In this document: positions 8,630 through 40,193 of the stretch, piece after piece | Numbering within the stretch: position 1 is the first letter of the stretch | How the letters are laid out: every line of letters begins with the position of its first letter | From: an uncultured bacterium | GTDB lineage: Bacteria; Oederibacteriota; JAAXVQ01; JAUVAV01 | Direction of reading: 5' to 3' | Length of the DNA stretch: 63,179 nt | Assembly: GCA_965371665.1 (NCBI GenBank) | Contig: CBDUZI010000003.1 | Coordinates: forward strand, 1 to 63,179 | Translations under genes and position numbers: made by a program | The notes under the pieces: model-generated | What the model was told of the DNA's origin: nothing | Database searches by the model: none | What the model saw: the letters and a program-made list of their open reading frames with translations, nothing else

Positions 8630-8846
8630 AATACTATTAGGCGTCTGGATATTCATTTCCATTATTTGCGCCATCTATATTTTGTTTTTTTCTTTTTCAC
8701 ATTGGAGCAAGCAATCATTTACCAGCGGCTTTATGAAATTTATCTGGCTTTTTGTAATCATTTTCGGCATGTTTATTCATTTTGCCGGACCAATTCTGTA
8801 TTATATTATGGTTGTTGAATTGAAGAAAACTTTAATAAAAATTTAA
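8517..8846 (+). CDS. Small integral membrane protein (about 3 hydrophobic spans), function unknown
   Basis: ATG preceded by 'AGGAGGAG' ~7 nt upstream. Hydrophobic segments include ILLGVWIFISIICAIYILFF and FIWLFVIIFGMFIHFAGPILYYIM. Overlaps the giant ORF's 3' end by 113 nt in another frame. Confidence 0.6.
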   Translation: MKKTIQRIMILNLAIGNLISIFSPISASGSLKNITFPEILLGVWIFISIICAIYILFFSFSHWSKQSFTSGFMKFIWLFVIIFGMFIHFAGPILYYIMVVELKKTLIKI

Positions 8847-8938
8847 CTTGTAATTCCCCGTAGATTGCTACGGGGTTACCTGATGGAGTTCCCCCTTTGG
8901 AAAAGGGGGCTAGGGGGATTTTACTGCGGGGAGAATTC
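8847..8938. repeat. Family-2b MITE-like element
   Basis: Termini 'cttgtaattccccg' / 'cggggagaattc'. Core 'ccccctttggaaaagggggctagggggatttt'. Its reverse complement aligns with 21985-22090. Confidence 0.75.
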
Positions 8939-8976
8939 ATTTAGTTTCTATTGCAAAAAGGTTGTTTTAGTTTTTT

Positions 8977-9058
8977 GTCATTCCGAGGAAGCGAAGCGAC
9001 CGAGGAATCTCCTTGAAAACTAGGGATTTTAGAGATTCCTCGCTGCGCTCGGAATGAC
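8977..9058. repeat. Family-1 palindromic element (GTCATTCCGAGG...CTCGGAATGAC)
   Basis: About 35-bp imperfect arms: 'gtcattccgaggaagcgaagcgaccgaggaatctc' and 'gagattcctcgctgcgctcggaatgac'. Confidence 0.8.
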
Positions 9059-9147
9059 AAAGTGTGAGAATTCCGTTAAAAATACTCTTCCCGCAACATG
9101 AGCTAATTGGGCATGGGTCAAAATCATCTTTAAAAGGAGAAATTAAA

Positions 9148-10002
9148 ATGAAAAAAAGCCTAAGCATTATAATATTATCTGCATTTTGTTGTATCCTGGC
9201 CGCATCAGCGCTGGCTACAGTCCCAAAGTTAATCAATTATTCCGGTAAACTAACGGATAAAGCTGGGAACGTCTTGCCTGACAAAGCTTATGACATACGT
9301 TTCTCCTTATGGACCGCGCAGACCGGCGGAACTGAGGATTGGTGGGAGGAACATTACATAACGCAAGTAAGAGGCGTCCAGACATACGGAGGCGGATTCA
9401 ATGTGGTTCTAGGCGGCACGAGACCTTTCCCGGTTTTTGATCAAAATTATTGGCTGCAATTAACCGTAACCATAAACAGCACGCCTGAGACCTTTTCCCG
9501 GCAGGAACTTATTACTGTGCCCTATGCAATGCGCGCGGAGTGGGCGAATGAAGCAAAAACTGTTGAAGATAATGCCATTACTCATGCTAAAATAGCTCCC
9601 GGCGCTGATCTGCCTATTGGTTCGATAATAGCTTGGCATAAAAATCTGGGCGGTGTCCCTAGCCTGCCTCCTCAATATGTCGAGTGTAATGGCCAAGCCT
9701 TAAATGATCCCTCAAGTCTTTTAAATGGTCAAATTATACCTAATTTGAATGGAGAAGGTAGATTTTTAAGGGGTAGTAATGTTGCCGGAACCATGCAAGC
9801 GGATGAATTGAAAAGTCATAATCATCAAGTTATCTCAAGTTGGCCTTCTGCTACTTGTACAGAATGGCATGTTGTCGCTGATTGGATGGATCCTGGAGAA
9901 GGTGTGACTTGGGAGAACTGGGGGCCCTCATTAACGCATACTGGCGGGTCTGAAACACGCCCTATTAATATGAGTGTAGTTTGGATCATGAAGATAAAGT
10001 GA
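9148..10002 (+). CDS. Secreted protein with phage tail-fibre/collar-like C-terminal domain
   Basis: Start moved to ATG 9148 (AAGGAG upstream; MKKSLSIIILSAFCCILAASALA looks like a signal peptide). C-terminal 'GSIIAWHK...PNLNGEGRFLRGSN...ELKSHNHQV...HTGGSETRPINMSVVWIMKI' follows the tail-collar pattern (G-I-x-W ... PDLRGRF ... HxH ... ETRPxN). Confidence 0.5.
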   Translation: MKKSLSIIILSAFCCILAASALATVPKLINYSGKLTDKAGNVLPDKAYDIRFSLWTAQTGGTEDWWEEHYITQVRGVQTYGGGFNVVLGGTRPFPVFDQNYWLQLTVTINSTPETFSRQELITVPYAMRAEWANEAKTVEDNAITHAKIAPGADLPIGSIIAWHKNLGGVPSLPPQYVECNGQALNDPSSLLNGQIIPNLNGEGRFLRGSNVAGTMQADELKSHNHQVISSWPSATCTEWHVVADWMDPGEGVTWENWGPSLTHTGGSETRPINMSVVWIMKIK

Positions 10003-10052
10003 TTCTTCTTTAATTTAAGACATTTTTTAAATGTGGAGATTAGTATTTAACC

Positions 10053-10682
10053 ATGGTTAATATACCAATACGGCATAAGTTTCTTCTGAAACAATTAATC
10101 AAAGCACAGGAAATATATTTCCCCAATAAAGCTATTAAGGCATTAGATATTGGAGCGTCTAATGGGAGTTTTATTACATTAGCAAGTAAACGCATTTGTA
10201 ACTTAGAAAGAATTGACGGCGTAGAAACAGATTCAACTTATGCTGATTATATTTCATCAATGGGCCATTTATTTATCCAAGACCTTCAGATTGACACCGG
10301 AAATATTCCATTGCATACATATAATATTATCACTATGTGGGAAATTATTGAGCATATTGAAAATATCTACGTTTTTTTAAGGAACGTTAAAAACCTCCTT
10401 GCTAAAGATTCAATTATTACAATTGCTACGCCCAACACAATGAGTTTCAGTAGACTATTTAAGGGTAATAACTGGATAGGAACGAGGGATAGAAGTCACA
10501 GAATCTTATATGATAAATTAACCTTGAAAATGCTGCTGGAAAACTCAGGATATTCCATTTTAAAGATATGCAATTATTTTTTCCCTAACAGATTACCGGA
10601 AGCATTTTCAGTGCTAAATAATATCACGTCACCTTTTCCAGGCGGAGGAATGCTGTTTGCTATTGCTAAGATAAAGCAGTAA
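10053..10682 (+). CDS. Class I SAM-dependent methyltransferase
   Basis: Motif I-like 'ALDIGASNGSF', 'ITMWEIIEHIEN', and 'SIITIATPN' post-motif. Confidence 0.7.
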   Translation: MVNIPIRHKFLLKQLIKAQEIYFPNKAIKALDIGASNGSFITLASKRICNLERIDGVETDSTYADYISSMGHLFIQDLQIDTGNIPLHTYNIITMWEIIEHIENIYVFLRNVKNLLAKDSIITIATPNTMSFSRLFKGNNWIGTRDRSHRILYDKLTLKMLLENSGYSILKICNYFFPNRLPEAFSVLNNITSPFPGGGMLFAIAKIKQ

Positions 10683-10721
10683 TCGGATTTCGTTTTTAAA
10701 TATATTTTTTCTTGACATAGC

Positions 10722-10811
10722 CCAGGAGCCTGAGCAATTAGTCGCTGGATTCCCGATACGATCATTCGGGAATGACAACCTAAAAAACAGACTAATTACT
10801 CAGGCTCCTAG
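10722..10811. repeat. Family-1 MITE-like element with 19-bp terminal inverted repeats
   Basis: TIRs 'aggagcctgagcaattagt' (10724-10742) and 'actaattactcaggctcct' (10791-10809) have 1 mismatch. Inner hairpin 'ggattcccga...tcgggaatgac'. Confidence 0.75.
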
Positions 10812-10860
10812 CAAGAATTGATAGCAAGCTTACTGATAATAATTTTAAATCCTGCAAAGG

Positions 10861-12399
10861 TTGAGGATTTTTATTTTGATATATTACTCTAAACTCCATA
10901 CACTCGGCCTAATTTCTATTTTTGCCTCCATCCTACTACTTGCCCTCCTGCATATGCTGCAATCCACAACAATTTGGGATGATGCATTTATTACCCTTCG
11001 GGTTGCAAACAACTGGGCTCAAACCGGCATTCCGGTTTATAATTTAGGTCAGACGGAATGGATTCCTACTAACTTTTTATGGGTGGCATTACTTGCCGGC
11101 CTTAACAAACTAACGCTAATCAATCTACCTCTGCTAAGTCAAATCACTGGAGGAATATGTGGAATAGGTATTATTATTTTATTATTAACAATTCCGTTTA
11201 AAGAAAACACCCGGACAGTAAATATTTTTGCAGCAATCTTATGCAGTTTATCGGCTCTTTGGGCAGCCTGGCCATTATCCGGCTTGGAAACCAGTTTGTT
11301 TTCTTTGTTGATAACAGCCGGGGTATTATTAATTATTATTTATTTTGATAAACCCAAAAAGGAAACATTAATCGCTTCCGCCATCTTGTTAGGCATGGCC
11401 TCACTAACTAGACCAGAAGGTATAGTATTTTTTATTATTTGCTCTTTTTTTATCCTTTTATATAAAAGAAAATGGCATTATCCAGGTTGGTTTGCATTGG
11501 TATTTGGAGCAATAATTTCATCTGGGATCCTGTATTTATTGCTGACTTTTAAAACTATACTGCCCACTTCCTATTTTGTAAAAATCCATGGACTCCAGAA
11601 TATTGCTCCTGGCATGGCATATCTGAAATCCTTATCCCAAATTTATAATCTTATCTGGGTTATGCCCATTTTTATTTTTCCTTTTCTTTTAAAAAACGAA
11701 AGGAAAAAAACCCTTTTTTTAACAATGATTCTATGCGGATGGTTTGCTTGCATTGGTATCATTGGCGGTGATTTCATGCCTTATCACCGTTTTATATCTC
11801 CAGTCTGGCCGCTGCTCTGCTTTTATATAGCTTTTAGTCTTGGTTCTTTAATGGATTACTGGCAAAAAAAACAGCCAACTTATGAATTATTGTTCAAACT
11901 TGGTATTTATGTTATATTGGGTCTCATTTCTTTGAACTTTATACTTCCTACTTTCCATGGTAAAGATCACACTCGGGTTCAATCCTGGAGCCGCGAAGAA
12001 GCTGACAGGACCGCCATCGGCAAATGGTTTAGAGGCCGTTATGAACACACGGACTGGGTAGCTGTTAAACCTGCAGGCATCATACCTTTTTATTCGAACA
12101 TGAATGCCCTGGATTTTTATTGTCTTTCTTCCCGTCAGGCTGCTCAGACCGGCCAATTTGTGCCGCAACATTGGGTGGGACATCAAAAAGTGAATGTGGA
12201 TTGGGTGCTTAAGCAGCGTCCGCGCATTGTCATCCTGGACGAGCATTTATATTCCTTCGAAAATCTTCCAGAACCTGATCAGGGAGAAGGTATTATTGAA
12301 CGAGAATGGCGAAAAAGCCCGCTACGACAGAATTATAAATCTTTTCAGATTGAATTACAGGCTAACAGATGGCTTCAATATTTTGAACGAATTGATTAG
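10861..12399 (+). CDS. Polytopic membrane protein, GT-C-type glycosyltransferase-like
   Basis: About 10 or more hydrophobic spans followed by a soluble C-terminal domain. N-terminal 'WDDAFITLRVANNW' loop resembles GT-C (arabinosyl/mannosyl-transferase-like) first-loop acidic motifs. The TTG start is uncertain. Confidence 0.45.
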   Translation: MRIFILIYYSKLHTLGLISIFASILLLALLHMLQSTTIWDDAFITLRVANNWAQTGIPVYNLGQTEWIPTNFLWVALLAGLNKLTLINLPLLSQITGGICGIGIIILLLTIPFKENTRTVNIFAAILCSLSALWAAWPLSGLETSLFSLLITAGVLLIIIYFDKPKKETLIASAILLGMASLTRPEGIVFFIICSFFILLYKRKWHYPGWFALVFGAIISSGILYLLLTFKTILPTSYFVKIHGLQNIAPGMAYLKSLSQIYNLIWVMPIFIFPFLLKNERKKTLFLTMILCGWFACIGIIGGDFMPYHRFISPVWPLLCFYIAFSLGSLMDYWQKKQPTYELLFKLGIYVILGLISLNFILPTFHGKDHTRVQSWSREEADRTAIGKWFRGRYEHTDWVAVKPAGIIPFYSNMNALDFYCLSSRQAAQTGQFVPQHWVGHQKVNVDWVLKQRPRIVILDEHLYSFENLPEPDQGEGIIEREWRKSPLRQNYKSFQIELQANRWLQYFERID

Positions 12400-12456
12400 C
12401 CAATAGTATAGAGATAATCATTTTCCGTTTTATTTTTTAAAAGGAGCAAAAAGTTT

Positions 12457-13977
12457 ATGAATGTTTTTAAAATTAATTTTGATCGTGTAAAGCGCATCAT
12501 TTTTACAGATGTTCGATTTTCATTATTGTCTATATTTATTCTTTCTTTAGGAGGAATATTACGTTTTTGGCATCTGAATCGCCAAAGTTTATGGCAGGAT
12601 GAAATACATACCGCCATCTATGTCAATGATCATCCTTCTCTATGGGAAGTAATTCATCGCGTAGCCACCTGGGATTTGCATTCCCCCTTGTTTTATGTCT
12701 TGCTCCGGGTCCAAGTATGGTTCCAGCAGTTGGTTAGTATTCCTTTAACCGACGGCAATCTCCGAATCATCTCCGCTTTATTAGGCTTTTTAGCCCTGCC
12801 CGTTCTATATTTTTTATTCCGAAGAGTATTCAATCATAAATTTTACGCCTTATCAGCTGTTTTCCTGGCGGTTATAAATATTTACGGTATTTATTATTCG
12901 CAAGAACTGCGTATGTATTCCTTAATTTTATTATTATCTCCCTCACTGCTTTACTTCGGTTTAAACCTTTGGGACAATGATAATAAACTAAACCTCGGCG
13001 CTGCTATGGGATATGTCACATGTAGTGTAATGCTTATTTATTCAAGTCTGGTTACTTTATTTTTTGTATTTGGTGTATGGCTAAGTGTTTTGGTAATAAG
13101 TGTTTTCCAAAGAAAAAACCATCCCCAGCAAATAACCGAGGTTATTAAGCTTGGTTTTATGATCTTCATCTGCTATCTGCCCTGGTTAGGTGTGATGTGG
13201 AAACAAAGCATGACACTAAAGGAGGGCGTTGGAACCGGGCTGGTTATTACTCACCCTCGCGAGTTATTTAAATTCGCTTTTGAGAAATTACTTTTCCATG
13301 ACTGGAAACTGGATATAAATTATGGCATCATTAATAAAATTGTCCGTAATTTAATCCCCTTCTCATTATTGAATCTTCTCGATCGCAAAAACCGCCAGAA
13401 ACACTTGCTGATCATTTCCAGTTTTTGCTTCGCGTTTATCTTGTATTATGTGATTATTTTTAACCGGGATTTTCAATGTTCCCGTTACTTTGCCCCCTGG
13501 TGGCCCTACGCTATATATTTCATTGTGGCGGGTTTTTCAGGTATAATTTACTGCTTAAATAAAATTAACCCTCGCCTGAAGTTAGCCGGTATTATTTTCA
13601 TGGCTCTATTTATGGGTTACTATACTTTTGTCCAGTCAAAACAAATACATTACTACTTTTCACAGTATGAAAAAGAGAATTGGCGGGGACTGGTTGAATA
13701 TCTAAATATCCACAAAAAAGCAGGGGATGTTTTGGTCACCGGCGGAGACTGGCATAAAACTAATTTAACCTATTATGGCGTTACTTTACCCTTTGTATAT
13801 ACCCATGATCTTAAAAATGATAAATATACCGCTAATTTCAAACGCTATATTTATATTGAGGTGAAAAATCCACAATATGATACAAAATTAAGACTTCCCC
13901 AAAATTTTAAAAAAGTCCCCTGGCCTATACATTGTAAAAATTATTATATCTGGGAGCCGGAAAGTAAATCGCATTAA
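12457..13977 (+). CDS. Glycosyltransferase family 39 (ArnT/PMT-like) membrane protein
   Basis: AAGGAG RBS ~10 nt upstream. 'SLWQDEIHTA' first-loop motif typical of GT39/ArnT-like proteins. Many TM spans plus a C-terminal soluble part. Confidence 0.55.
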   Translation: MNVFKINFDRVKRIIFTDVRFSLLSIFILSLGGILRFWHLNRQSLWQDEIHTAIYVNDHPSLWEVIHRVATWDLHSPLFYVLLRVQVWFQQLVSIPLTDGNLRIISALLGFLALPVLYFLFRRVFNHKFYALSAVFLAVINIYGIYYSQELRMYSLILLLSPSLLYFGLNLWDNDNKLNLGAAMGYVTCSVMLIYSSLVTLFFVFGVWLSVLVISVFQRKNHPQQITEVIKLGFMIFICYLPWLGVMWKQSMTLKEGVGTGLVITHPRELFKFAFEKLLFHDWKLDINYGIINKIVRNLIPFSLLNLLDRKNRQKHLLIISSFCFAFILYYVIIFNRDFQCSRYFAPWWPYAIYFIVAGFSGIIYCLNKINPRLKLAGIIFMALFMGYYTFVQSKQIHYYFSQYEKENWRGLVEYLNIHKKAGDVLVTGGDWHKTNLTYYGVTLPFVYTHDLKNDKYTANFKRYIYIEVKNPQYDTKLRLPQNFKKVPWPIHCKNYYIWEPESKSH

Positions 13978-14028
13978 ACGGCCGACGCGCTATGTTGACG
14001 ATGGCAACCGCAGCCCTGCGCCGAAAGG

Positions 14029-15498
14029 ATGAACATGCTGTTTTTAAAAATATCAACTATTGTTTTTTTATCTGCCGCGGGCTATTTTATAGATAAAAAA
14101 TGGCCCAATATAAAGCATACCATCTCCGGCAAAATCAACTGGAACCTGGCCGCTTTTTCTTTAATGGCCGTTTATTTTATCTTTTATCTCATCTTGAAAA
14201 TCACCCAGCATTATTCTTTTCATACCAATGCCTTTGATCTATCCATCTTTGACTACGCCGTGGCGAATACTCTGCGCGGCAAATTTCTTCATGTTCCCTT
14301 TTTAAACGGCTCGTTTTTAAAGGAGCATTTTAGCCCGATTCTGCTTTTACTCACGCCGTTGTATATGCTTAAAAAATCACCGATTAATCTGCTGGTGCTC
14401 CAATGCCTGGCCGTGGCCGGTGCGGCCTGGCCGTTATTCTTGTTGGCCAAAAAGCAACTGGCAAATAAAGCCTTGGCCCTGGTTATTGTTTTTGCATATT
14501 TAAATAACTGGTATCTTGTTCATGGATTGCTCTATGATTTTCATGTGGAAATGTTCGAACCATTGCTGATCATATTAATGGTTTGGGGATATTTGGAAAG
14601 AAAATATCCAATTTACTGGACTTCCCTGCTGCTGGCGCTTATGTGCAAAGAAGATGTAGGCATTTATCTCTTTTTCTTCGGTCTATTTGTATTAATTAAA
14701 GAAAAACGATTCAAGTTAGGTTTAATCACTTCCGCAGCATCGCTGTTATGGGTTTTAACTGCTTTAATAATCATAGCATTTATGAATAATGGCGCTGCTG
14801 CTTTCTCAGGCTATAAATTTTTAACCAATTGGATTCCCCCAGATACCAGTCTGTCGGAATATTTTTTCCATTGGGTTTCTCATCCTCATGAAGCCGCAAG
14901 TATCTTTTTGAATATGCGAGTCTGGCAACTGATTTATCCTCTGGCTTTTCTTCCGCTGTTTTCCTGGTGGGGCATTCTGCTCCTGGCGCCAATTGGATTG
15001 AATGCCGCCAGCGCCAATTCGCTGCAAGCTGGTTTTATGCTGTATTATTCCGCGCCCATAATTCCTTTTTTATTTGTGGGAATTATCTTCGGTCTGAAAA
15101 ACTTAATCCAACACAATACTAACAAATTCTGGATTTTGCTTGGTTTATGCCTCTATTTAGCAATCTTCAATGTACACCGCTATTCTCAGGATAGTATCGA
15201 GGCCCGGCATAAGACCGGGAGCGCAATGCTGCAGAGTATCCCGGAAAACGTCCCACTGGCTGCTCAAGGCAGCCTGGTGCCGCATATTTCCCATCGCGAG
15301 CACATTCACATTTTACCCAGGATGGAAGCCAGCGATGAATATATTGCTTTAGACCTGGCTGGCAACCATTTTCCCATGACCAGGAAAGAGCTTTTAGATA
15401 TTTATAAATCCATTAAAAACAATCCGAAATATCAGGAAATCTTTAACCAAGATGATTTTATACTATTTCAGAAATCAAGAAAGAATGACACCATTTAA
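14029..15498 (+). CDS. DUF2079-like polytopic membrane protein (GT-C-like)
   Basis: 'FHTNAFDLSIFDYAVANTLRGKFLH' matches the conserved N-terminal loop I recall for DUF2079. Polytopic. Confidence 0.55.
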   Translation: MNMLFLKISTIVFLSAAGYFIDKKWPNIKHTISGKINWNLAAFSLMAVYFIFYLILKITQHYSFHTNAFDLSIFDYAVANTLRGKFLHVPFLNGSFLKEHFSPILLLLTPLYMLKKSPINLLVLQCLAVAGAAWPLFLLAKKQLANKALALVIVFAYLNNWYLVHGLLYDFHVEMFEPLLIILMVWGYLERKYPIYWTSLLLALMCKEDVGIYLFFFGLFVLIKEKRFKLGLITSAASLLWVLTALIIIAFMNNGAAAFSGYKFLTNWIPPDTSLSEYFFHWVSHPHEAASIFLNMRVWQLIYPLAFLPLFSWWGILLLAPIGLNAASANSLQAGFMLYYSAPIIPFLFVGIIFGLKNLIQHNTNKFWILLGLCLYLAIFNVHRYSQDSIEARHKTGSAMLQSIPENVPLAAQGSLVPHISHREHIHILPRMEASDEYIALDLAGNHFPMTRKELLDIYKSIKNNPKYQEIFNQDDFILFQKSRKNDTI

Positions 15499-15632
15499 AT
15501 TCAGCTCCTCATTGCCATTGACTCACTGAACAAGATTTTGCTATACTTCCCTGAAATCGCCTTGCTCTTTGCGGCAAACTCAGCTACATTTTATGGCAAG
15601 TGGAATATACTAGTTCTAAAGGATGTAACTTT

Positions 15633-15980
15633 ATGGAAATTATTCAGGCTAAAATAACCAAAACCGAGCTCATGAAAAAACATATGAATTTTTTCCAATC
15701 CATGACCAAGGCAGTTGTGGATGTGGAAAAAGGAATCATGGCGCTTGACGCCGACTTGCATGCAGACCTGGAGGCCTTGCTATTGGACCAAGGCTCGCGT
15801 CAGGAATATTTGTGGGGAATCAACCTGCATCCTTTAAAGGACCAAAATGATTTCGTCGAATATACCGCTCTGATAAATATTCGCCCCTGGCAGGAAAATG
15901 CTTCAATGGAAATAGCCAATCCGGAGATCAAGCAACGCGTTAACCATATTGTGGAAGCACTGATGGACTATGCAGCTTAA
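15633..15980 (+). CDS. Hypothetical small protein (possibly DUF5674-like)
   Basis: Start moved to ATG 15633 (AAGGA upstream). 'AVVDVEKGIMALDADLHADLEALLLDQGSRQEYLWGINLHP...INIRPWQ' resembles a family common in uncultivated lineages, from memory only. Confidence 0.4.
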   Translation: MEIIQAKITKTELMKKHMNFFQSMTKAVVDVEKGIMALDADLHADLEALLLDQGSRQEYLWGINLHPLKDQNDFVEYTALINIRPWQENASMEIANPEIKQRVNHIVEALMDYAA

Positions 15981-16317
15981 AGAACACAAAACATTGACCA
16001 CGGATAAGTGGCGCCGGTTTCCGCTCGCTAAACAAATTCTCATGATTAGCAACGAACTTAACCGGGCTCAACATTGGATAGGACGGCAAGATACTTCTGA
16101 GGTCAATCATTGTTATGAAAGAGCCCTCGAACTTCTCTACCTGACCATTGCAGTGGCTGATAAATTCACACTCCGGAAGGAGCTTTTGCGCATGCGTGAC
16201 CAACTCGCGCTGCAGTACATCAATTCAAAGAAAAACGCCCGCGCCAATCAAGCCCTTTTCCGGATTCTTTTAACGCTGGACAAGGATAGCTATAATCTAT
16301 TAAAATACTCTTCCTAA
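15970..16317 (+). CDS. Hypothetical small helical protein
   Basis: ORF overlaps the upstream gene by 11 nt, suggesting translational coupling. No motif recognised. Confidence 0.4.
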   Translation: MQLKEHKTLTTDKWRRFPLAKQILMISNELNRAQHWIGRQDTSEVNHCYERALELLYLTIAVADKFTLRKELLRMRDQLALQYINSKKNARANQALFRILLTLDKDSYNLLKYSS

Positions 16318-27519: not shown

Positions 27520-28917
27520 TTATTTGTTTTCCGGTTCTCCCAGTTTCTGATAGGGTCTTCCCCGGTACCGGACTCCCAAACCTTTAGCCAAGGCCTGCAA
27601 CTCGGCGGTTTTTACTTCCGGCATTTCCACGGCCGTCAAATTCACTCTATATCCGGCTTTTCCGGCCCGGGTAATAAAATCGATTACTGCGGCATGGGTC
27701 CGGTCCCCGGTGGCCGGCCGAACCATTTTAAAATACTGCTCAGGATCAACGGTATTTAAGGATATTGACCACTCATCCACAACTTCCCGGCACTGCGGCA
27801 GAATATCGCGTCCGAAAATCATATCCGCCTGGCCGTTAGTATCCACCCTCACCCATCCCCCCCGGGATTTAACCTTCCGGGCGATCTCCAGCATGGTAGC
27901 GAGCCGCAACAGGGGCTCTCCGAATCCACAAAATACAATCTCGGAATAGTCCCGGGGATCTCCTATGGCCGCTATAACCTCCTCAGCCCGGGGTTCCCGC
28001 TTCAGGGTCAACTCATAATTTTGGACCCGGCGATTAACCCGCCGGGGACAAAAAACACAATTCGCACTGCAGCGGTTAGTGAGGTTAATATATAAATGTC
28101 CTTGGATATTATATACCATCACGCCCGGATCGCACCCGCTGATTTTAAACAATTGGCGGGCATTCCGGCTGGTCTGCTCCGCCGCAACCGCGGGTGAAAT
28201 ATTTTTTATCCGGGCTACGGCTTCCGCCACTTTGAGAACATTAGCCGGTTCATTTCTCTTGCCCCGTTGCTCCTGGGGCGGCAGATAAGGCGAATCGGTC
28301 TCCAGCAAGAGCCGGTCATCCGGCAGGGCGCGCGCCACCGCACGCACGGATTCAGCGCGGGGATAGGTAATCGTTCCTCCGATCCCGGCGTGAAAACCCA
28401 AATCCAGAACCTCGGGCAGATGCTCTATTCCGCCATCATAACAGTGCAGCACCCCGCCGCCGGGAAAAGGGCCTTGCTGCCGGAGCAATTGCAGGCCATC
28501 ATCAAAGGCCTCCCGGATATGTATGATCAAGGGCAGTTCAAAAATTCTGGCCAGTTCAAGCTGCCGGCTAAAACCGGCCTGTTGAGCTTTTCGGTCCGGG
28601 GCCGGGTAATCCGGAAAAACATGATAGTCCAAACCAATCTCGCCCAGGGCTACAACTTTTTCCCGGCTCAGCCATTCGGGCAGTTCCTTAAGCTCCGGCT
28701 CGCAGCCCGGTTTAAATTCATGCGGATGCACGCCCATGGCCGCGTAAATACCACTATGCGCGCGGGCCAGTTCCCACCCCCTCTGGTTGGCTTCCAGGCT
28801 GGAACCGGCATTTAGCATGGTATGTACCCCAGCCTCTCCGGCACGCCTGATAACCTGCTCACGGTCCGGATCAAAAGCCTGTTCTTCAAGATGAACGTGC
28901 GTATCAATTAAATCCAT
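27520..28917 (-). CDS. Fusion protein: TatD/YabD-family metal-dependent hydrolase plus C-terminal radical-SAM-type domain
   Basis: N-terminus 'MDLIDTHVHLEE' and 'GEIGLDY', 'IIHIREA', 'LLETDSPYL' are TatD signatures. The C-terminal ~200 aa contain 'NLTNRCSANCVFCPRR' (CX3CX2C) and 'FCGFGEP'. Confidence 0.75.
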   Translation of the reverse strand: MDLIDTHVHLEEQAFDPDREQVIRRAGEAGVHTMLNAGSSLEANQRGWELARAHSGIYAAMGVHPHEFKPGCEPELKELPEWLSREKVVALGEIGLDYHVFPDYPAPDRKAQQAGFSRQLELARIFELPLIIHIREAFDDGLQLLRQQGPFPGGGVLHCYDGGIEHLPEVLDLGFHAGIGGTITYPRAESVRAVARALPDDRLLLETDSPYLPPQEQRGKRNEPANVLKVAEAVARIKNISPAVAAEQTSRNARQLFKISGCDPGVMVYNIQGHLYINLTNRCSANCVFCPRRVNRRVQNYELTLKREPRAEEVIAAIGDPRDYSEIVFCGFGEPLLRLATMLEIARKVKSRGGWVRVDTNGQADMIFGRDILPQCREVVDEWSISLNTVDPEQYFKMVRPATGDRTHAAVIDFITRAGKAGYRVNLTAVEMPEVKTAELQALAKGLGVRYRGRPYQKLGEPENK

Positions 28918-35458: not shown

Positions 35459-36880
35459 TTATTTTTTCTTTTTACTGCTCTTCTTTTTGCTGCTTTTCTT
35501 GCTTTTTTTCGCCTCGGTCTTTTTCGAGACAGTCGCATCCGGTTTAGACTCCGGAGTAGCAACCTTGGTCAGGTCGTCCTGGGAAACTCCCGGTATTTGT
35601 TTTGCCGGCGCCCGCGTCCTGGTTTTGGCTTTTTGCCGGCTATCCATTTTCTCAAGTACATTCTGAATACGCCTTTTAATCCATCGGCTTTTTTCTTGTC
35701 CCAATGCCTGTTTAAGAATGCTTTTGGCTTGGGAATTCTTTATTTCCCCCAAGGCGGAAACCGCAGCCCAGCGCACGCGCTCTATTTCATCTTCCATCAG
35801 TTTACTTAAGGCCTTAATGGCCTGGTTACCTTTTATCCGGCCTAAGGCTTCCGCGGCCTCTTCCCGAACATACTCATCTTTATCTCCGGCCATTTTAAGA
35901 ATAATACCAATATTCCTGGCATCCGCTATTTGAGCCAGCGCATGCGCGGCCGCGGATCGGACTACCCGCTTCTTTTCCGTAAGCAAGGGAAGCAGTACCG
36001 GAATAGCTCTCTGGGCACCCAACCGGCCTAAGGCCAAGGCCGCCTCCCGGCGCATGGAACTATGCTCATCACTCAGCGCCCGGATTAAAACGTCCTCGGC
36101 CCGGGCATCACCGATATTTCCCAGCGCCATAATAGCGGAACGCTTAGGATAAAGTTCCTTTTTCCCGGTTAACTGGATTAAATCCGGTACTGCGGCCCGG
36201 GCTTTTATCCTTCCCAGGGCCATGGCAGCATCGCCCTGCAGCATTGGTACATTTGAACGGAGAGCGCGCCGAATATGATCAACTACTTGGTCACCTTTAA
36301 ACTTGGTCAAGACCCAAATAACCCGCCGCTGAACGAGAATCTCCTTGTCGTCCAGCGCTTTATATAAATCCGGCAAAACGCTTCTATCCGGGGATAAACC
36401 CAAGGCGATTACCGCCTGCTCCCGGACTTTGGTTGAAGGATCCTTAAGAAAACCCTTGATCGCCGGTATTTTCTCTTTTCCTCCCAATTTAACCGTGGTC
36501 AAAACCGCCGCCGCCCGGACCTCCCCGCTTTTATCTTTCAACAGAGGCTCAACCTGATCCAGTTGTGATTTGTCGCCCCACGCCCGCATGGATACTAAAG
36601 CATTGGCGCGTACTTTCTCGTCCTTATCCTGCAGGGCTTTAAGCAGCTTTGGCACTACGGATTTATCGCCTACGCCGCCTAGCGACATAACCGCCCGGCG
36701 CCGCTCGGCCGGATCATTGGAATCGAGCATGCGTGAATATTGACTGATCATGGATTTTCTTTTGTGTTTCCAAGAGCGAGGCGATTGTAGTTGCAGAGCC
36801 GCAATAATCGCTCCAGCCGCGGCCACCAGCACTACCATGATAATCCAGATGATCTTGGTTTTCTGAGTTGCCATCCCCAT
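35459..36880 (-). CDS. Membrane-anchored HEAT-repeat (PBS-lyase type) protein with poly-Lys/Ser tail
   Basis: N-terminal TM IIWIIMVVLVAAAGAIIAAL. More than 10 repeats of the form 'xxVRxxAxxALGxxGDxxAVPxLxxxL'. C-terminal 'KKSKKSSKKKSSKKKK'. Confidence 0.75.
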   Translation of the reverse strand: MGMATQKTKIIWIIMVVLVAAAGAIIAALQLQSPRSWKHKRKSMISQYSRMLDSNDPAERRRAVMSLGGVGDKSVVPKLLKALQDKDEKVRANALVSMRAWGDKSQLDQVEPLLKDKSGEVRAAAVLTTVKLGGKEKIPAIKGFLKDPSTKVREQAVIALGLSPDRSVLPDLYKALDDKEILVQRRVIWVLTKFKGDQVVDHIRRALRSNVPMLQGDAAMALGRIKARAAVPDLIQLTGKKELYPKRSAIMALGNIGDARAEDVLIRALSDEHSSMRREAALALGRLGAQRAIPVLLPLLTEKKRVVRSAAAHALAQIADARNIGIILKMAGDKDEYVREEAAEALGRIKGNQAIKALSKLMEDEIERVRWAAVSALGEIKNSQAKSILKQALGQEKSRWIKRRIQNVLEKMDSRQKAKTRTRAPAKQIPGVSQDDLTKVATPESKPDATVSKKTEAKKSKKSSKKKSSKKKK

Positions 36881-36990
36881 CCTCCTTATCGAATCAGGTA
36901 GATAATAATTTCATAAACAAAAAAGATTATAACATATCATTAAAAAACACGCATTAAAAAATATAAGCCGCATGTAATATTCAGCGTCGG

Positions 36991-37067
36991 CAGGAGACCG
37001 TCGGATTTAACAACTAAAGACGTTTTTCCGAATCCCCCCTTTTCAAAAAGGGGGCTGGGGGGATTTT
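36991..37067. repeat. Degenerate family-2 element
   Basis: 'caggagaccgtcggatttaa' is TIR-like. Core 'aatccccccttttcaaaaagggggctggggggatttt'. Confidence 0.55.
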
Positions 37068-37189
37068 ACAAATAATAAATCAGGTTGGCTACCCTGGGGC
37101 TTGTCCCAAGGCGGTTCATTCCAAAAAGGAATGAATTGATTGTCTGCTTTTCTTATTATCTCGTTTAGTATCACGTTTATATTTTAGTA

Positions 37190-37559
37190 TCACGTTTTAC
37201 GCCAGCAAGCGCTTCTGCCAGTTCCTAAAACCTTGACTTTCCCTTTGTCTCTCAACCCCTCCAAAACGTTGCGGATCATGGGACGGCTTACCCCAGGGCA
37301 AGCCCGTTCAATATCCGAGATGGAAAAGTCCCCCATTTGTCTTTCAATCGCCGCTATAACAATCTCCGTTTTGGCGCCTTTGGCCGGCTTGATATTTCGC
37401 GCCCGTGCTTCAACTTCTTTGTAAGCCTCCAGTTATGGTACCGAGAAAATAATTGAACCACGAAAAAACATCATGCTTGCCCTTATATTCAGAAATGGCG
37501 TTCATCAGCCACACCGAACCCAGCGGGAGCTTAACCGCATCATTTATGAATGAATTCAT
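37190..37559 (-). pseudogene. Degraded Fic/DOC-family gene remnant (N-terminal stub plus out-of-frame C-terminal winged-helix)
   Basis: My own translation of the minus strand. ATG 37559 gives 'MNSFINDAVKLPLGSVWLMNAISEYKGKHDVF...' and stops at 37410. A second frame (about 37425-37190) reads '...KTEIVIAAIERQMGDFSISDIERACPGVSRPMIRNVLEGLRDKGKVKVLGTGRSACWRKT*', which is like the C-terminal wHTH of Fic proteins. The central HxFx(D/E)GNGR core is absent. Confidence 0.35.
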
Positions 37560-37621
37560 TTGCTTTCTCCGTTCATATCAGAGGTATAGAAGCCCATATT
37601 CCATCTGCCCTTTCGCCCGGT

Positions 37622-37752
37622 CACTTCGACATGCTCAGTGACCGTGGGCGAATCAATCAAAAAACGGTCGTTGAGCTGTTTGTCGGGCTGGTGGCTGAGC
37701 TTGTCGATACAATAAAGTGTCGGGCCCGGTGGCTGAGCTTGTCGAAGCCACT
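37622..37752. repeat. Family-4 cluster (GAGCTTGTCGAA / TTCGACAAGCTC motifs)
   Basis: 'cttcgacatgctcagtgacc', 'ggtggctgagcttgtcgatac', 'ggtggctgagcttgtcgaagccac'. Confidence 0.75.
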
Positions 37753-37969
37753 CGGCCCCTTTGTGGGCGACATTAATCCCTCTTTTAAAACAACGTTTTT
37801 CTTATACCTGGCACCGTGCGCCCAGTATCTTTTTCTTTAATTTTAAATAAACCTCATAATGTGTCATTGCCAAGGTATTAGAAATTGGCGCAGATGCCGT
37901 TTGTCCTGGTTGTATGCGATGTTTAGATATATGAGTGGCCGAAATCCTTGCGCTTGGCCAAGCCACAAC

Positions 37970-39040
37970 TCATGGTATTACCTCAATCTCTCCAGATCGC
38001 GAAAATCCATATATCTTGTCAGTCAATCGGCATAAATAAGGTATTAGTCCATCTCCAAAAAGACCATGGTATTTCCCATTGAAACCAAAACTATCGCGCA
38101 CTTGTACATTCTTGTTAAAAGCTGATATTAAATTGCTGGCTTGCTGGTTGGAAATCCGTTTTATGAACGGTAACAGTTCAGACAAAGGGTTTGCGTCATC
38201 ATATTCTTGACAATCCCGGATAGCTTTGATGTATGCGTTCAACATCCGATCATGCGACATTAATATTTTTACGATTTCTTTTGCGGCCATATCCCACGAA
38301 CAGGAAATCGCTTGAGACTTTCCTAGAAAACCATACGGATCTTTCCCTAATTTAACAGAAATAATCGGCACGCTTCGTCCAAAAGCAAACCCCACTTCTT
38401 GATCCGTCCAATTACTACCATGGAAGTCTTCCGTCATAAGTGCCACAAACGCATCCATTGAAAAAAGGGCGTTCTCGATTTCACTTTGCCATTCTTCAGT
38501 AGGCCGAATGTCTTCATGCGCCACAAAACCAGATATTCCGAAAAGCTTTAGTTTTTCTTTTAATTCTGCTGTTTCTTTTTTAACTTCGGTTTTGTGGCTA
38601 AGAAACAATCTATACCCATCATTCCCCCAGATACGGTTCACGGCTTCGGGCAGAATAGCACGCTTGCCTGCCAAAAGCTTTCCGGATTCTTTTCGCCAAT
38701 CTCGTTCTTCTACGCGTTCCATCTCTAAAAAAACACTGTCGATAAACTCATCCTGAACATTATGAACTTTATTTAGATCATCCTTTATTTGCTTCTGTAG
38801 TTTATCCTTTTTCTTAGCAGCGCTAATATATAATATTTCTGGCATTACCAAATAAAGGGCATGACCATATGTAATACCGCCCATGTTCTCGTAACCACAT
38901 CCTTCATGGACCCTTATTTGAGAATTTACGATAATTTCCTGGAGTTCTTTTTGCCCATCATTCGCGTATAATTTTGAAAGCACCGCCAAATAATGCTCGA
39001 TATTCGAGGATAGTTGCAATTGAGATTCTTGTTCGCTCAT
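37970..39040 (-). CDS. TIR-domain protein with uncharacterised N- and C-terminal domains
   Basis: Central 'YRLFLSHKTEVKKETAELKEKLKLFGISGFVAHEDIRP...MDAFVALMTEDFHGSNWTDQEVGFAFG' fits the bacterial TIR/DUF1863 pattern (FISH ... S-x-W ... E). The gene is visibly lower in GC than its neighbours. Confidence 0.6.
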   Translation of the reverse strand: MSEQESQLQLSSNIEHYLAVLSKLYANDGQKELQEIIVNSQIRVHEGCGYENMGGITYGHALYLVMPEILYISAAKKKDKLQKQIKDDLNKVHNVQDEFIDSVFLEMERVEERDWRKESGKLLAGKRAILPEAVNRIWGNDGYRLFLSHKTEVKKETAELKEKLKLFGISGFVAHEDIRPTEEWQSEIENALFSMDAFVALMTEDFHGSNWTDQEVGFAFGRSVPIISVKLGKDPYGFLGKSQAISCSWDMAAKEIVKILMSHDRMLNAYIKAIRDCQEYDDANPLSELLPFIKRISNQQASNLISAFNKNVQVRDSFGFNGKYHGLFGDGLIPYLCRLTDKIYGFSRSGEIEVIP

Positions 39041-39165
39041 ATCGTTATCCTTACTTCTCCACTCATCAACTTTGGCAATAGCGTATCTTGCAAATTTCCA
39101 AGATTGACGGTGCTGCCAGTGTAATAAGTCCCGTCAGCACATTAAAGAATACACATATAAGGCAT
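39041..39165 (-). pseudogene. Truncated second copy of the GIY-YIG gene 5' end with a nonsense codon
   Basis: 39106-39165 is ~89% identical to 39531-39590. It reads MPYMCIL-TAA-CADGTYYTGSTVNL, against MPYMYILECADGTYYTGSTVNL in the intact copy (GAA to TAA at codon 8). Its ATG overlaps the intact gene's stop (TAATG). Confidence 0.65.
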
Positions 39166-39590
39166 TACTCGCGCCTCACATTAGTCGCTTCGACAAGCTC
39201 AGCGACCACTTTTATTTCTATCCTTTTCTTGCACTCTCCCTGAGCCGTTTGCTGAGCCTGTCGAAGCAGGCGACCGGTCCCTGAGCTTGTCGAAGGGACA
39301 TTTCTGGGATACTGTGTATAGTTTTTTGCCAATTCAGGTAATTTGTTATACTCCGCTTCAAACAATACCTTTTTCTTTGCATGACTCCAGCCCTGTACCT
39401 GCTTCTCCCGATAAAACGCCTCGTCAACTCTTGCGTATTCCTCCGCATAGACGAGTCTAACCGGATGTTTTTTCCTAGTATAGTTCGCTCCGAGCATATT
39501 TTTATGCTCCCAAAGCCGCTTTTCAAGATTGACGGTGCTGCCGGTGTAGTAAGTCCCGTCGGCACATTCAAGGATATACATATAAGGCAT
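39165..39590 (-). CDS. GIY-YIG nuclease-superfamily protein (UPF0213/YhbQ-like) with a repeat-derived C-terminal tail
   Basis: 'YMYILECADGTYYTGSTVNLEKRLWEHK' (GIY...YxG motif), 'RLVYAEEY...A..REKQVQGWS'. The tail 'PSTSSGTG..RLLRQAQ..VVAELVEA' is encoded by GAGCTTGTCGAA-type repeats. Confidence 0.8.
   Translation of the reverse strand: MPYMYILECADGTYYTGSTVNLEKRLWEHKNMLGANYTRKKHPVRLVYAEEYARVDEAFYREKQVQGWSHAKKKVLFEAEYNKLPELAKNYTQYPRNVPSTSSGTGRLLRQAQQTAQGECKKRIEIKVVAELVEATNVRRE
39184..39300. repeat. Family-4 cluster inside the 3' end of the GIY-YIG gene
   Basis: 'gtcgcttcgacaagctcagcgaccac', 'gctgagcctgtcgaagcagg', 'ccctgagcttgtcgaaggg'. Confidence 0.75.
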
Positions 39591-39640
39591 TATTCACAAG
39601 CTCCAATGCTGATTCTGGCCGTTTTTCGTTTGCTTCAACA

Positions 39641-39780
39641 GGGTCGTTTCGACAAGCTCAACGACCGGTTTGAATCCAAGCTCAACGACCGGTTTGACTG
39701 ACTGAACGACCTTGCCGACGCAGCCGAAGTACCGATCCCTAAGCTTGTTTAATTTCCTGTCCCCGAGCTTGTCGAGGGGC
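39641..39780. repeat. Family-4 cluster upstream of the GIY-YIG gene
   Basis: 'ggtcgtttcgacaagctcaacgaccgg', 'caagctcaacgaccgg', 'ccccgagcttgtcgagggg'. Confidence 0.75.
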
Positions 39781-39783
39781 CGC

Positions 39784-40074
39784 TCATTCAACACTCCTTA
39801 ATAACCCGGGCGCAATTTTCCAATTTTCATTGTCATCAGTTATAACCGAAACCGTTTTTTTATGCATTGCGTTAATAACCCCCGTCTTAACCAAGCCATC
39901 GGAACCGGTGAAACTAACCCGCTGGGTTAAATGGAATTTTGCCATTTTTTCGCTGCTTTGTACCTGGGAGAGAACTTTAAGGCGTTCACAAATCATACGG
40001 TTCAGATAAATGAGATCCTTCGCGCTCAAGGTCTTGATAAAATCTTCTATGCGGGGTATATCCAATTCTTTCAT
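39784..40074 (-). CDS. Hypothetical 96-aa protein
   Basis: Clean ORF with no overlapping alternative. No motif recognised. Confidence 0.4.
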   Translation of the reverse strand: MKELDIPRIEDFIKTLSAKDLIYLNRMICERLKVLSQVQSSEKMAKFHLTQRVSFTGSDGLVKTGVINAMHKKTVSVITDDNENWKIAPGLLRSVE

Positions 40075-40089
40075 TCTTTCCCTCCAGCA

Positions 40090-40168
40090 GTAGGGACCGG
40101 TCGCGACCGTTTCCTACGAAAAAATCAAATCCGCGTTGTCTGTAGGAACAGGCATGCCTGTTCCCTAC
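40090..40168. repeat. Two GTAGG...CCTAC-type palindromes (family 3)
   Basis: 'gtagggaccggtcgcgaccgtttcctac' (40090-40117) and 'gtaggaacaggcatgcctgttccctac' (40142-40168). Confidence 0.75.
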
Positions 40169-40193
40169 GAAACCGTCTATCCGGTCCGATGGT

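Follow-up and report, generated by a model that had tools for sequence, protein, structure and literature searches.

A TIR-domain protein left behind by a type I restriction-modification operon as a candidate single-gene defence effector

How does an intact gene of a TIR-domain protein come to stand alone among housekeeping genes, and could its product defend a cell on its own? This question is raised by a contig of 63,179 nucleotides from an uncultured bacterium (CBDUZI010000003.1, assembly GCA_965371665.1; this whole stretch is referred to as the window), where an open reading frame (ORF) on the minus strand at 37970-39040 encodes a protein of 356 amino acids (aa). The original prediction, made from the letters alone, described an orphan TIR protein flanked by two domains in which nothing was recognised, and proposed it as a single-gene immune effector. 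Here, we show that the gene is a member of a widespread family that moves horizontally and is associated with type I restriction-modification (R-M) operons, and that its copy in the window is a remnant of one of these operons. The protein may well be a self-contained abortive-infection anti-phage effector, an NAD+-cleaving enzyme (NADase) resembling SpbK; we put the probability of this reading at about one half.

The TIR domain and its active site

The ORF is intact, starts with ATG, and ends with a stop codon at 37970-37972. The gene and its central domain are as follows:

37970-39040, minus strand: intact gene of the three-domain TIR protein (ORF call, Pfam, AlphaFold2, family search)
38261-38614, minus strand: TIR domain, aa 143-260, with FLSH and W211-T-D-Q-E215 (Pfam, Foldseek, conservation)

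The Pfam model TIR_2 (PF13676) matches aa 146-253 (E = 1.8e-13, 51.5 bits, the gathering score being 28), and this is the sole Pfam domain in the 356-aa protein. The AlphaFold2 model, built with 30 homologues (mean pLDDT 82.6), comprises an alpha/beta part (aa ~10-107), the TIR domain (aa 143-260), and an all-helical part (aa 264-340). Hence, the protein does consist of three domains, as had been predicted, and the outer two have neither Pfam nor PDB-sequence matches. In the Foldseek comparison of the model with PDB, the credible matches were all TIR domains (probability 1.00, target-normalised TM-score 0.6-0.68), specifically those of SARM1, Hydra TRR-2, BcThsB from B. cereus (8fz9), AbTir (7uwg), SPARTA TIR-APAZ, SpbK (9phb), and MAL; the E-values were merely about 1e-3, as the query contained three domains.

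The FLSH motif occupies aa 146-149, SNWTDQEVG spans aa 209-217, and the E215 codon is GAA at 38396-38398. It is known that the WxxxE motif of AbTir holds W204 and the catalytic E208 (PMC10641520). In the family profile alignment, WTDQE (W211/E215) falls on WTNYE (W204/E208) of AbTir. Among 269 family members W211 is invariant (100%), and E215 is present in 267, that is, in 120/120 close and 147/149 distant ones. All three domains are strongly conserved: when 30 sequences from many phyla are compared, the mean column identity is 70%, and 63 columns are invariant. The invariant polar residues further include H149, H175, D177, E187, E189, H207, D213, and Q214. Thus, the protein has a bona fide TIR domain with an intact catalytic residue. 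The TIR pattern with a catalytic Glu, originally read from the letters alone, is recovered by the profile match above the gathering score and by the structure comparison, and proper alignment keeps the Glu, E215 being aligned to AbTir E208.

We also considered that the TIR-fold domain acts on a different substrate, as a nucleotide or nucleic-acid N-glycosidase like nucleoside 2-deoxyribosyltransferase/DNPH1. Relatives yield matches to Nuc_deoxyrib_tr, although below the threshold (1.7e-6, 28.6 bits vs 28.8), DNPH1 is also found by Foldseek (TM-score 0.65-0.66), and many invariant polar residues have no assigned role. However, TIR_2 is clearly the best profile match, WxxxE is the signature of TIR NADases, and the top structural matches are NAD+-cleaving TIRs, so this alternative seems very improbable.

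Genomic context of the family

To characterize the neighbourhoods of homologues, ORFs were called in the 80 best genomic loci and all neighbours were clustered. Three clusters of neighbours are shared by 20-23 loci each; their positions relative to the TIR gene are fixed, and they lie on its strand. According to Pfam, these are HsdM (N6_Mtase and HsdM_N), HsdS (Methylase_S), and HsdR (HSDR_N, SWI2_SNF2, and T1RH-like_C), and the typical gene order is hsdM-(x)-hsdS-TIR-(x)-hsdR, with RhuM, Fic, and DUF1016/YhcG as optional extras. In total, the association with type I R-M is observed in 28-29 of the 80 loci (~35%), remnants counted. Of the 15 loci with hsdS immediately upstream, 10 show an ATGA in which the hsdS stop codon and the TIR start codon overlap, a signature of translational coupling. 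Thus, the preferred home of the family is the slot between hsdS and hsdR, with the TIR gene translationally coupled to hsdS.

The optional extras are the classic company of PrrC-type accessory genes, and prrC itself resides in the hsdS-hsdR slot of EcoprrI (PMC3710099). In enteropathogenic Escherichia coli (EPEC) the same slot hosts DarTG2, an embedded defence system (PMC12255303), and it underlies the "guilt-by-embedding" approach (bioRxiv 10.1101/2024.01.29.577857).

In the remaining ~52 loci, no recurring partner was found among ORFs of at least 70 aa. The search for a small partner or antitoxin among ORFs of 25-120 aa within 450 nt in 81 loci did not yield a conserved one either: every small-ORF cluster that recurs corresponds to the tail of hsdS or the start of hsdR in one frame or another, and hence a conserved small partner or antitoxin is rejected. 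The neighbours in other loci are defence genes mixed with integrases, IS200 transposases, and housekeeping genes; the former include type II R-M, GajB-like helicases, DRT, DrmMI-like methylases, PD-T4-6, ThsB_TIR, SIR2_2 with AbiC, reverse transcriptase (RT), and DUF6119. The defence association suspected for the gene is therefore supported by the survey, the homologues being located in type I R-M operons and defence islands, not in conserved non-defence operons.

One of the surveyed loci (L012, 9765-13942, from the cultured Geomonas anaerohicana Red421) is a compact defence cluster. Here, as in the window (see below), an ATGA joins the TIR gene to a remnant of the hsdS tail, the second such case. 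The next gene, which encodes a 585-aa SIR2_2 protein, has a start that overlaps the stop of the TIR gene, and is followed by a putative AbiC.

These data bear on the possibility that the protein is a signal generator similar to ThsB, producing a second messenger derived from ADP-ribose (ADPR) for an effector that is encoded elsewhere or has been lost here. The best sub-family matches in NCBIfam and PADLOC include ThcB4 (E = 1.5e-12) and ThsB models, ThsB_TIR neighbours are found in two loci, the SIR2_2 gene overlaps the TIR stop in one locus (L012), and SpbK also makes N1-cADPR (PMC12847820). On the other hand, no effector family recurs beside the gene in the 80 loci, be it among large or small ORFs; the ThcB4 match scores 47 bits, the cut-off being 220, and is restricted to the TIR domain, while the Pfam ThsB_TIR match is below threshold; and the Thoeris-type definition needs a multigene operon (bioRxiv 10.64898/2025.12.03.692087). 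Hence, we regard signal generation as distinctly improbable.

Origin of the copy in the window

The TIR gene lies in a low-GC island together with remnants of two other genes:

39037-39099, minus strand: hsdS 3' remnant, GNLQDTLLPKLMSGEVRITI followed by the stop codon (tblastn of HsdS C-termini, sequence reading, the same junction elsewhere)
37193-37487, minus strand: Fic-family remnant, frameshifted, C-terminal ~100 aa (tblastn to Fic of locus L008, Pfam)
36881-40193, no strand: low-GC island of ~3.3 kb, 43.6% GC, bordered by the housekeeping HEAT-repeat gene on one side and the AAA_26/DRTGG gene on the other

Approximately 60 nt directly upstream of the TIR start encode a C-terminal tail of HsdS ending with …LQDTLLPKLMSGEVRITI and a stop codon. 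The C-termini of HsdS proteins encoded at other loci are up to 79% identical to this tail (tblastn); only the last 19 codons of hsdS survive. The TGA of this tail overlaps the TIR start codon as ATGA, and an AAGGA Shine-Dalgarno sequence is located within the tail, 9 nt before the start codon. On the downstream side of the TIR gene, the Fic remnant is similar to Fic from the R-M operon of L008 (tblastn, 50% identity, E = 1e-19) and explains the Pfam match of DIP2311-like_C to a 48-aa ORF; at other loci, Fic genes are co-embedded in type I R-M operons. The homology search with the neighbour proteins revealed no surviving hsdM, hsdS, or hsdR across the 63-kb window, and the gene does not lie inside an intact R-M operon here. 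Thus, we observe a relic of the interior of a type I R-M operon (hsdS tail, TIR gene, fic remnant), with the TIR gene as the only intact survivor, and the single-gene state at this locus is secondary.

This changes the view of the gene start. The gene had been placed immediately behind a dead GIY-YIG fragment, with the suggestion that it may use the promoter and ribosome-binding site context of the latter. In fact, the ~60-nt hsdS remnant intervenes and supplies the start context, and since the native hsdS-tail/ATGA junction is retained with its own AAGGA, the gene is a relic cassette and not a case of promoter capture.

Within 10 kb on one side, the flank is formed by housekeeping genes (TatD/radical-SAM, MetRS, PSP1, DNA polymerase III delta', Tmk, FTHFS, and the HEAT protein); on the other side, the genes encode AAA_26/DRTGG, MetH-like, dCTP-deaminase-like, leucyl aminopeptidase (Peptidase_M17), KsgA, and PdxA proteins. 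No Thoeris, CBASS, or other defence partner was found within +/-10 kb of the TIR gene, in agreement with the initial impression that no signalling partner or effector is adjacent. The relic structure explains the odd "orphan" and shows how defence cassettes become stranded in housekeeping regions.

A related metagenome-assembled genome (MAG) of the candidate division FCPU426 (locus L001) aligns collinearly with ~19 kb of the window, the DNA being 82-90% identical, and carries the same junction of the GIY-YIG fragment, hsdS tail, and TIR gene (…NLRDALWPKLISGEVRVKI, stop codon). As the junction is common to the two genomes, it either predates their split or has been exchanged between them.

The recurrent link with hsdS suggests an alternative in which the TIR protein, like PrrC, would be produced along with HsdS, silenced through binding of its family-specific domains to the type I R-M complex, and released when a phage anti-restriction protein disables the latter, its NADase activity then killing the cell as a second defence line; in the window, the guarded partner would have been lost. 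Indeed, in the loci with R-M genes (~35%) the TIR gene occupies exactly the prrC slot between hsdS and hsdR; the ATGA overlap implies co-translation with hsdS; the hsdS tail accompanies the TIR gene even where hsdS is absent (the window, L001, and L012); and the company of RhuM and Fic is that of PrrC (PMC3710099). However, ~65% of the loci, including the window, have no hsd gene within 10 kb, whereas PrrC is almost exclusively embedded (bioRxiv 10.1101/2024.01.29.577857). Further, the hsdS-hsdR slot is a hotspot of a general kind, occupied by autonomous systems such as DarTG2 as well (PMC12255303), and the interaction with the R-M complex is hypothetical. Overall, we consider such guarding unlikely. 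A more specific version would make the protein the TIR counterpart of PrrC, that is, a co-translated NAD+-depleting suicide effector docked on the type I complex via its two family-specific domains and firing upon anti-restriction attack, with the travelling hsdS tail being a footprint of obligatory coupling. This version appears slightly less probable still; if it were true, the TIR protein would guard a restriction enzyme.

The flanking domains

38666-39040, minus strand: N-terminal domain, aa 1-~125, alpha/beta, family-specific, candidate sensor (models, domain searches, alternative N-termini in relatives)
37973-38260, minus strand: C-terminal helical domain, aa 261-356 (conservation, model, domain searches)

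In the Pfam scan, 34 sequences of the N-domain and 37 of the C-domain, with 16-63% identity to the window protein, produced scattered chance matches only, and the PDB-sequence profile searches with both domains gave nothing meaningful. When modelled separately, the N-domain was predicted with pLDDT 86.9 and pTM 0.78; Foldseek found no structural match for this model in PDB (best E = 0.02, TM-score < 0.4) and only chance-level matches among predicted viral structures (BFVD). The profile of each outer domain was also compared with a collection of 5.8 billion proteins and retrieved only fragments of the same TIR family, and hence there is no evidence for either domain in another architecture.

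The two domains differ in their constancy. The C-domain, with the conserved C277 and G319-F-N-G322, is a constant companion of the TIR clade, whereas the N-domain is a swappable, variable module of the wider family: in distant relatives, the unit of the TIR domain and C-domain occurs alone (~230 aa) or behind different N-termini. Three distant relatives (P0212, P0225, and P0238) contain AbiJ_NTD3, an N-terminal module of abortive-infection proteins that is at times fused to TIR (Anantharaman et al., PMC3710099). Judging from these sequence comparisons, the N-terminus, being variable, would suit a sensor, and the constant C-domain might serve regulation or assembly. The original idea that the outer domains could be the sensor and the oligomerisation module of an undescribed TIR system is thus partially supported, by the swappable N-domain and the AbiJ_NTD3 additions.

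Proposed mode of action

In the reading that we favour, that of a self-contained effector, the N-domain, perhaps together with the C-terminal helical domain, would recognise a phage-derived cue or hold the protein autoinhibited. Upon recognition, the TIR domains would assemble, a composite active site around W211/E215 would cleave NAD+, and the cleavage would arrest the infected cell. That the protein acts alone is suggested by the absence of a fixed partner in other loci, the defence-island and R-M context, and the conserved catalytic motif. Among standalone TIR proteins, only SpbK is understood mechanistically. It provides a single-protein precedent, in which binding of the N-domain to the phage portal gathers the TIR domains into a filament with NADase activity (PMC12847820).

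Several points weigh against this reading. Both the NADase activity and the roles of the outer domains are inferred. At the sub-family level, the best profile matches include signal-producing ThsB/ThcB4 TIRs no less than effector TIRs, and, given the tight coupling to hsdS, the protein might depend on the R-M complex instead of being autonomous. As regards the copy in the window, the ratio of nonsynonymous to synonymous substitution rates (dN/dS) between the TIR gene (37970-39040) and its counterpart in L001 (10001-11068) is 0.44 at dS 0.13. The window protein also has the F242S substitution at a position where 115/120 close relatives have F. Finally, the native operon promoter is gone, and this copy may be poorly expressed or drifting.

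For the flanking genes, GIY-YIG included, the same comparison of the window with L001 yields dN/dS 0.10-0.22 and dS 0.31-0.42. The raised dN/dS of the TIR gene may reflect relaxed constraint or a short divergence time. Its dS is about a third of that of the neighbouring genes; a later exchange of the cassette between lineages is a possible cause.

Alternatively, the gene might be an inert relic, persisting only because the operon break-up was recent and contributing nothing to the organism. The destruction of the neighbouring hsdS and fic, dN/dS two to four times that of the flanking genes, and the rare F242S substitution are consistent with this explanation, as is the lack of a convincing promoter, promoter-like sites being no more numerous than in shuffled sequence. 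The counts of the terminator scan did not exceed those in shuffled sequence either. However, the full-length ORF is found in two genomes differing by ~10% in DNA, its dN/dS is well below 1, and the native ribosome-binding site has been preserved. All family-invariant residues are present in the window allele, which deviates at 3 of 95 highly conserved columns, the family median being 1 and the maximum 6. In addition, the TIR gene follows the GIY-YIG gene on the same strand and might be transcribed by read-through. Thus, an inert relic appears improbable, and, to judge from the sequence, the copy in the window is probably still functional.

Spread of the family

The suggestion that the protein is an orphan does not hold if uniqueness is meant. 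The search with the whole protein gave more than 1700 word-seeded matches, the top 120 being proteins of ~355 aa that are 60-91% identical to it (Ignavibacteriales, Planctomycetia, Deltaproteobacteria, Nitrospirota, and others). An exhaustive search of representatives clustered at 50% identity yielded 3486 relatives at E <= 0.001, including 552 with E below 1e-30, and among 185,579 species in GTDB (one genome each) 294 stretches encode a relative. The relatives span more than 15 bacterial phyla as well as Methanosarcinaceae, Methanococcoides, and one Halobacteriota MAG, and across these phyla and archaea the ~355-aa proteins show 60-68% identity; cultured carriers are Thiohalophilus thiocyanatoxydans DSM 16326 (locus L021, with the gene inside hsdMSR), Geomonas Red421, Nitrosospira Nsp1, Afipia, Methanococcoides seepicolus, and Hyphobacterium vulgare. 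The GC content of the TIR gene is 39.8%, as compared to 48-50% in the flanks. Strong conservation, patchy distribution, and low GC content together indicate horizontal spread of the family. On plasmids, a single near-full-length relative was found (35% identity, on a plasmid of a Megaira endosymbiont). No relative is encoded in any phage record, and thus phage origin is rejected.

No full-length model of the family exists in Pfam (2025), NCBIfam (2026), or PADLOC v2, and the literature search found no paper describing it. The latest systematic TIR survey left out standalone TIRs (bioRxiv 10.64898/2025.12.03.692087), while the embedding survey of Payne et al. reports thousands of unnamed embedded families (bioRxiv 10.1101/2024.01.29.577857), probably including this one in bulk. 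What is new here is a candidate TIR defence protein of the standalone kind: two of its domains are novel, and its gene habitually resides in type I R-M operons, translationally coupled to hsdS. As the family is large, conserved, and present in both bacteria and archaea, its place behind hsdS offers a testable link between R-M and NAD+-depletion immunity.

The GIY-YIG element and other features of the window

Upstream of the hsdS tail, and on both sides of the TIR gene in the case of repeats, the following features were identified:

39100-39165, minus strand: dead 5' fragment of a second GIY-YIG copy, 22 codons, internal stop (sequence comparison)
39165-39590, minus strand: intact small GIY-YIG nuclease gene (Pfam GIY-YIG, E = 2.3e-16)
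37620-37750, no strand: downstream hairpin-repeat cluster of the GCTGAGCTTGTCGA type (repeat search)
39184-39775, no strand: upstream hairpin-repeat clusters of the same repeat, at 39184-39299, 39643-39697, and 39753-39775 (repeat search)

The dead GIY-YIG fragment that had been noted earlier is real. It reads MPYMCIL, a stop codon, and CADGTYYTGSTVNL, is fused to the hsdS tail, and over 76 nt duplicates the beginning of the intact gene with 89% identity, this truncated copy (the first 22 codons) being 425 nt away from the latter. At its 3' end, the GIY-YIG reading frame continues into the hairpin repeats (GTCGCTTCGACAAGCTCAGCGAC). The repeat core GCTGAGCTTGTCGAAGC has 7 matches in 63 kb, with 0.14 expected by chance, and all of them fall at 37623-37748 and 39187-39662, so that the repeats do bracket the TIR gene, as had been claimed. 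Together, these features look like a GIY-YIG/repeat element, mobile or prone to recombination, by which the ancestral R-M operon was disrupted. A downstream match to the 3' part of GIY-YIG (E ~ 1) weakly suggests that the cassette of the hsdS tail and TIR gene is nested inside a second GIY-YIG element.

Beside the island, a 96-aa ORF (39784-40074, minus strand) has no family match and is flanked by palindromic/direct repeats (also 40090-40172); it is absent from the otherwise collinear L001, which implies a recent insertion or deletion.

Three more observations concern the rest of the window. The HEAT-repeat protein (35459-36880, minus strand) has a lysine/serine-rich C-terminal tail (…KKSKKSSKKKSSKKKK), and its repetitive coding sequence creates several long spurious ORFs on both strands. 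The ORF at 27520-28917 (minus strand) combines a TatD-related DNase and radical SAM, and its PADLOC matches to QatD and pVip reflect generic domains only. The region 8000-16000 has a low GC content (0.35-0.41, as compared to ~0.49 in the window) and is possibly another horizontally acquired island.

Comparison with known systems

Two groups of TIR-containing systems were rejected. For TIR effectors of CBASS, Pycsar, SPARTA, Avs, and retrons, there is no fusion to, or neighbouring gene of, SAVED, STING, cyclase, pAgo-APAZ, STAND NTPase, or RT, and the PADLOC matches to SAVED_TIR and RT-TIR score ~20 bits and are confined to the TIR domain. For Thoeris of any type, no ThsA SIR2-SLOG, Macro-TM, SLOG, or caspase-like effector recurs in the 80 loci or occurs within +/-10 kb in the window, and no multi-TIR operon is observed; the sole effector-like exception is the SIR2_2 neighbour in L012. 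With ThsB/ThcB4 the window protein shares the TIR domain with a conserved Glu. ThcB4 of type III Thoeris (NCBIfam NF058526), the best NCBIfam match, is also of similar size, with TIR at profile positions 129-217 of 375; however, membership is rejected, as the 47 bits, coming from the TIR region only, fall short of the required at least 220.

Weak profile similarity to other single-gene TIR candidates was observed for PADLOC PDC-S66 (aa 75-216, partly before the TIR domain, E = 2e-5) and for retron-type RT-TIR effectors. At ~22 bits these matches are far below membership, and the architectures differ, the profile length being 282 and the window protein having no reverse transcriptase.

The AbiJ-NTD-fused TIR proteins are predicted abortive-infection effectors (Anantharaman et al. 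2013, PMC3710099). Distant members of the family carry AbiJ_NTD3 in front of the same unit of N-domain and TIR, whereas the window protein lacks the AbiJ N-terminal domain.

SpbK (Bacillus subtilis ICEBs1, PDB 9PHB) and the window protein are both single polypeptides with a non-TIR N-domain followed by a TIR domain with the catalytic Glu, and in both cases there is no dedicated partner gene and the gene resides on mobile DNA. The similarity is limited to TIR: only the TIR part is matched by 9PHB, and SpbK has a four-helix bundle as its N-domain, while that of the window protein is alpha/beta with no structural match, so sensor-domain homology was not observed; further, SpbK has no C-terminal helical domain and, unlike the window family, is not linked to type I R-M.

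The anticodon nucleases PrrC/RloC, vice versa, resemble the family in location. Their effector is an ABC-ATPase with a HEPN RNase in place of the TIR domain, and PrrC is almost always embedded (bioRxiv 10.1101/2024.01.29.577857), as compared to ~35% for the TIR family, where masking by the R-M complex is hypothetical. At the same time, both occupy the X position in hsdM-hsdS-X-hsdR, both have RhuM and Fic co-embedded, and both appear as accessory suicide-type effectors; with its recurrent same-strand location between the hsd genes, the TIR family takes its place among the families embedded in type I R-M operons.

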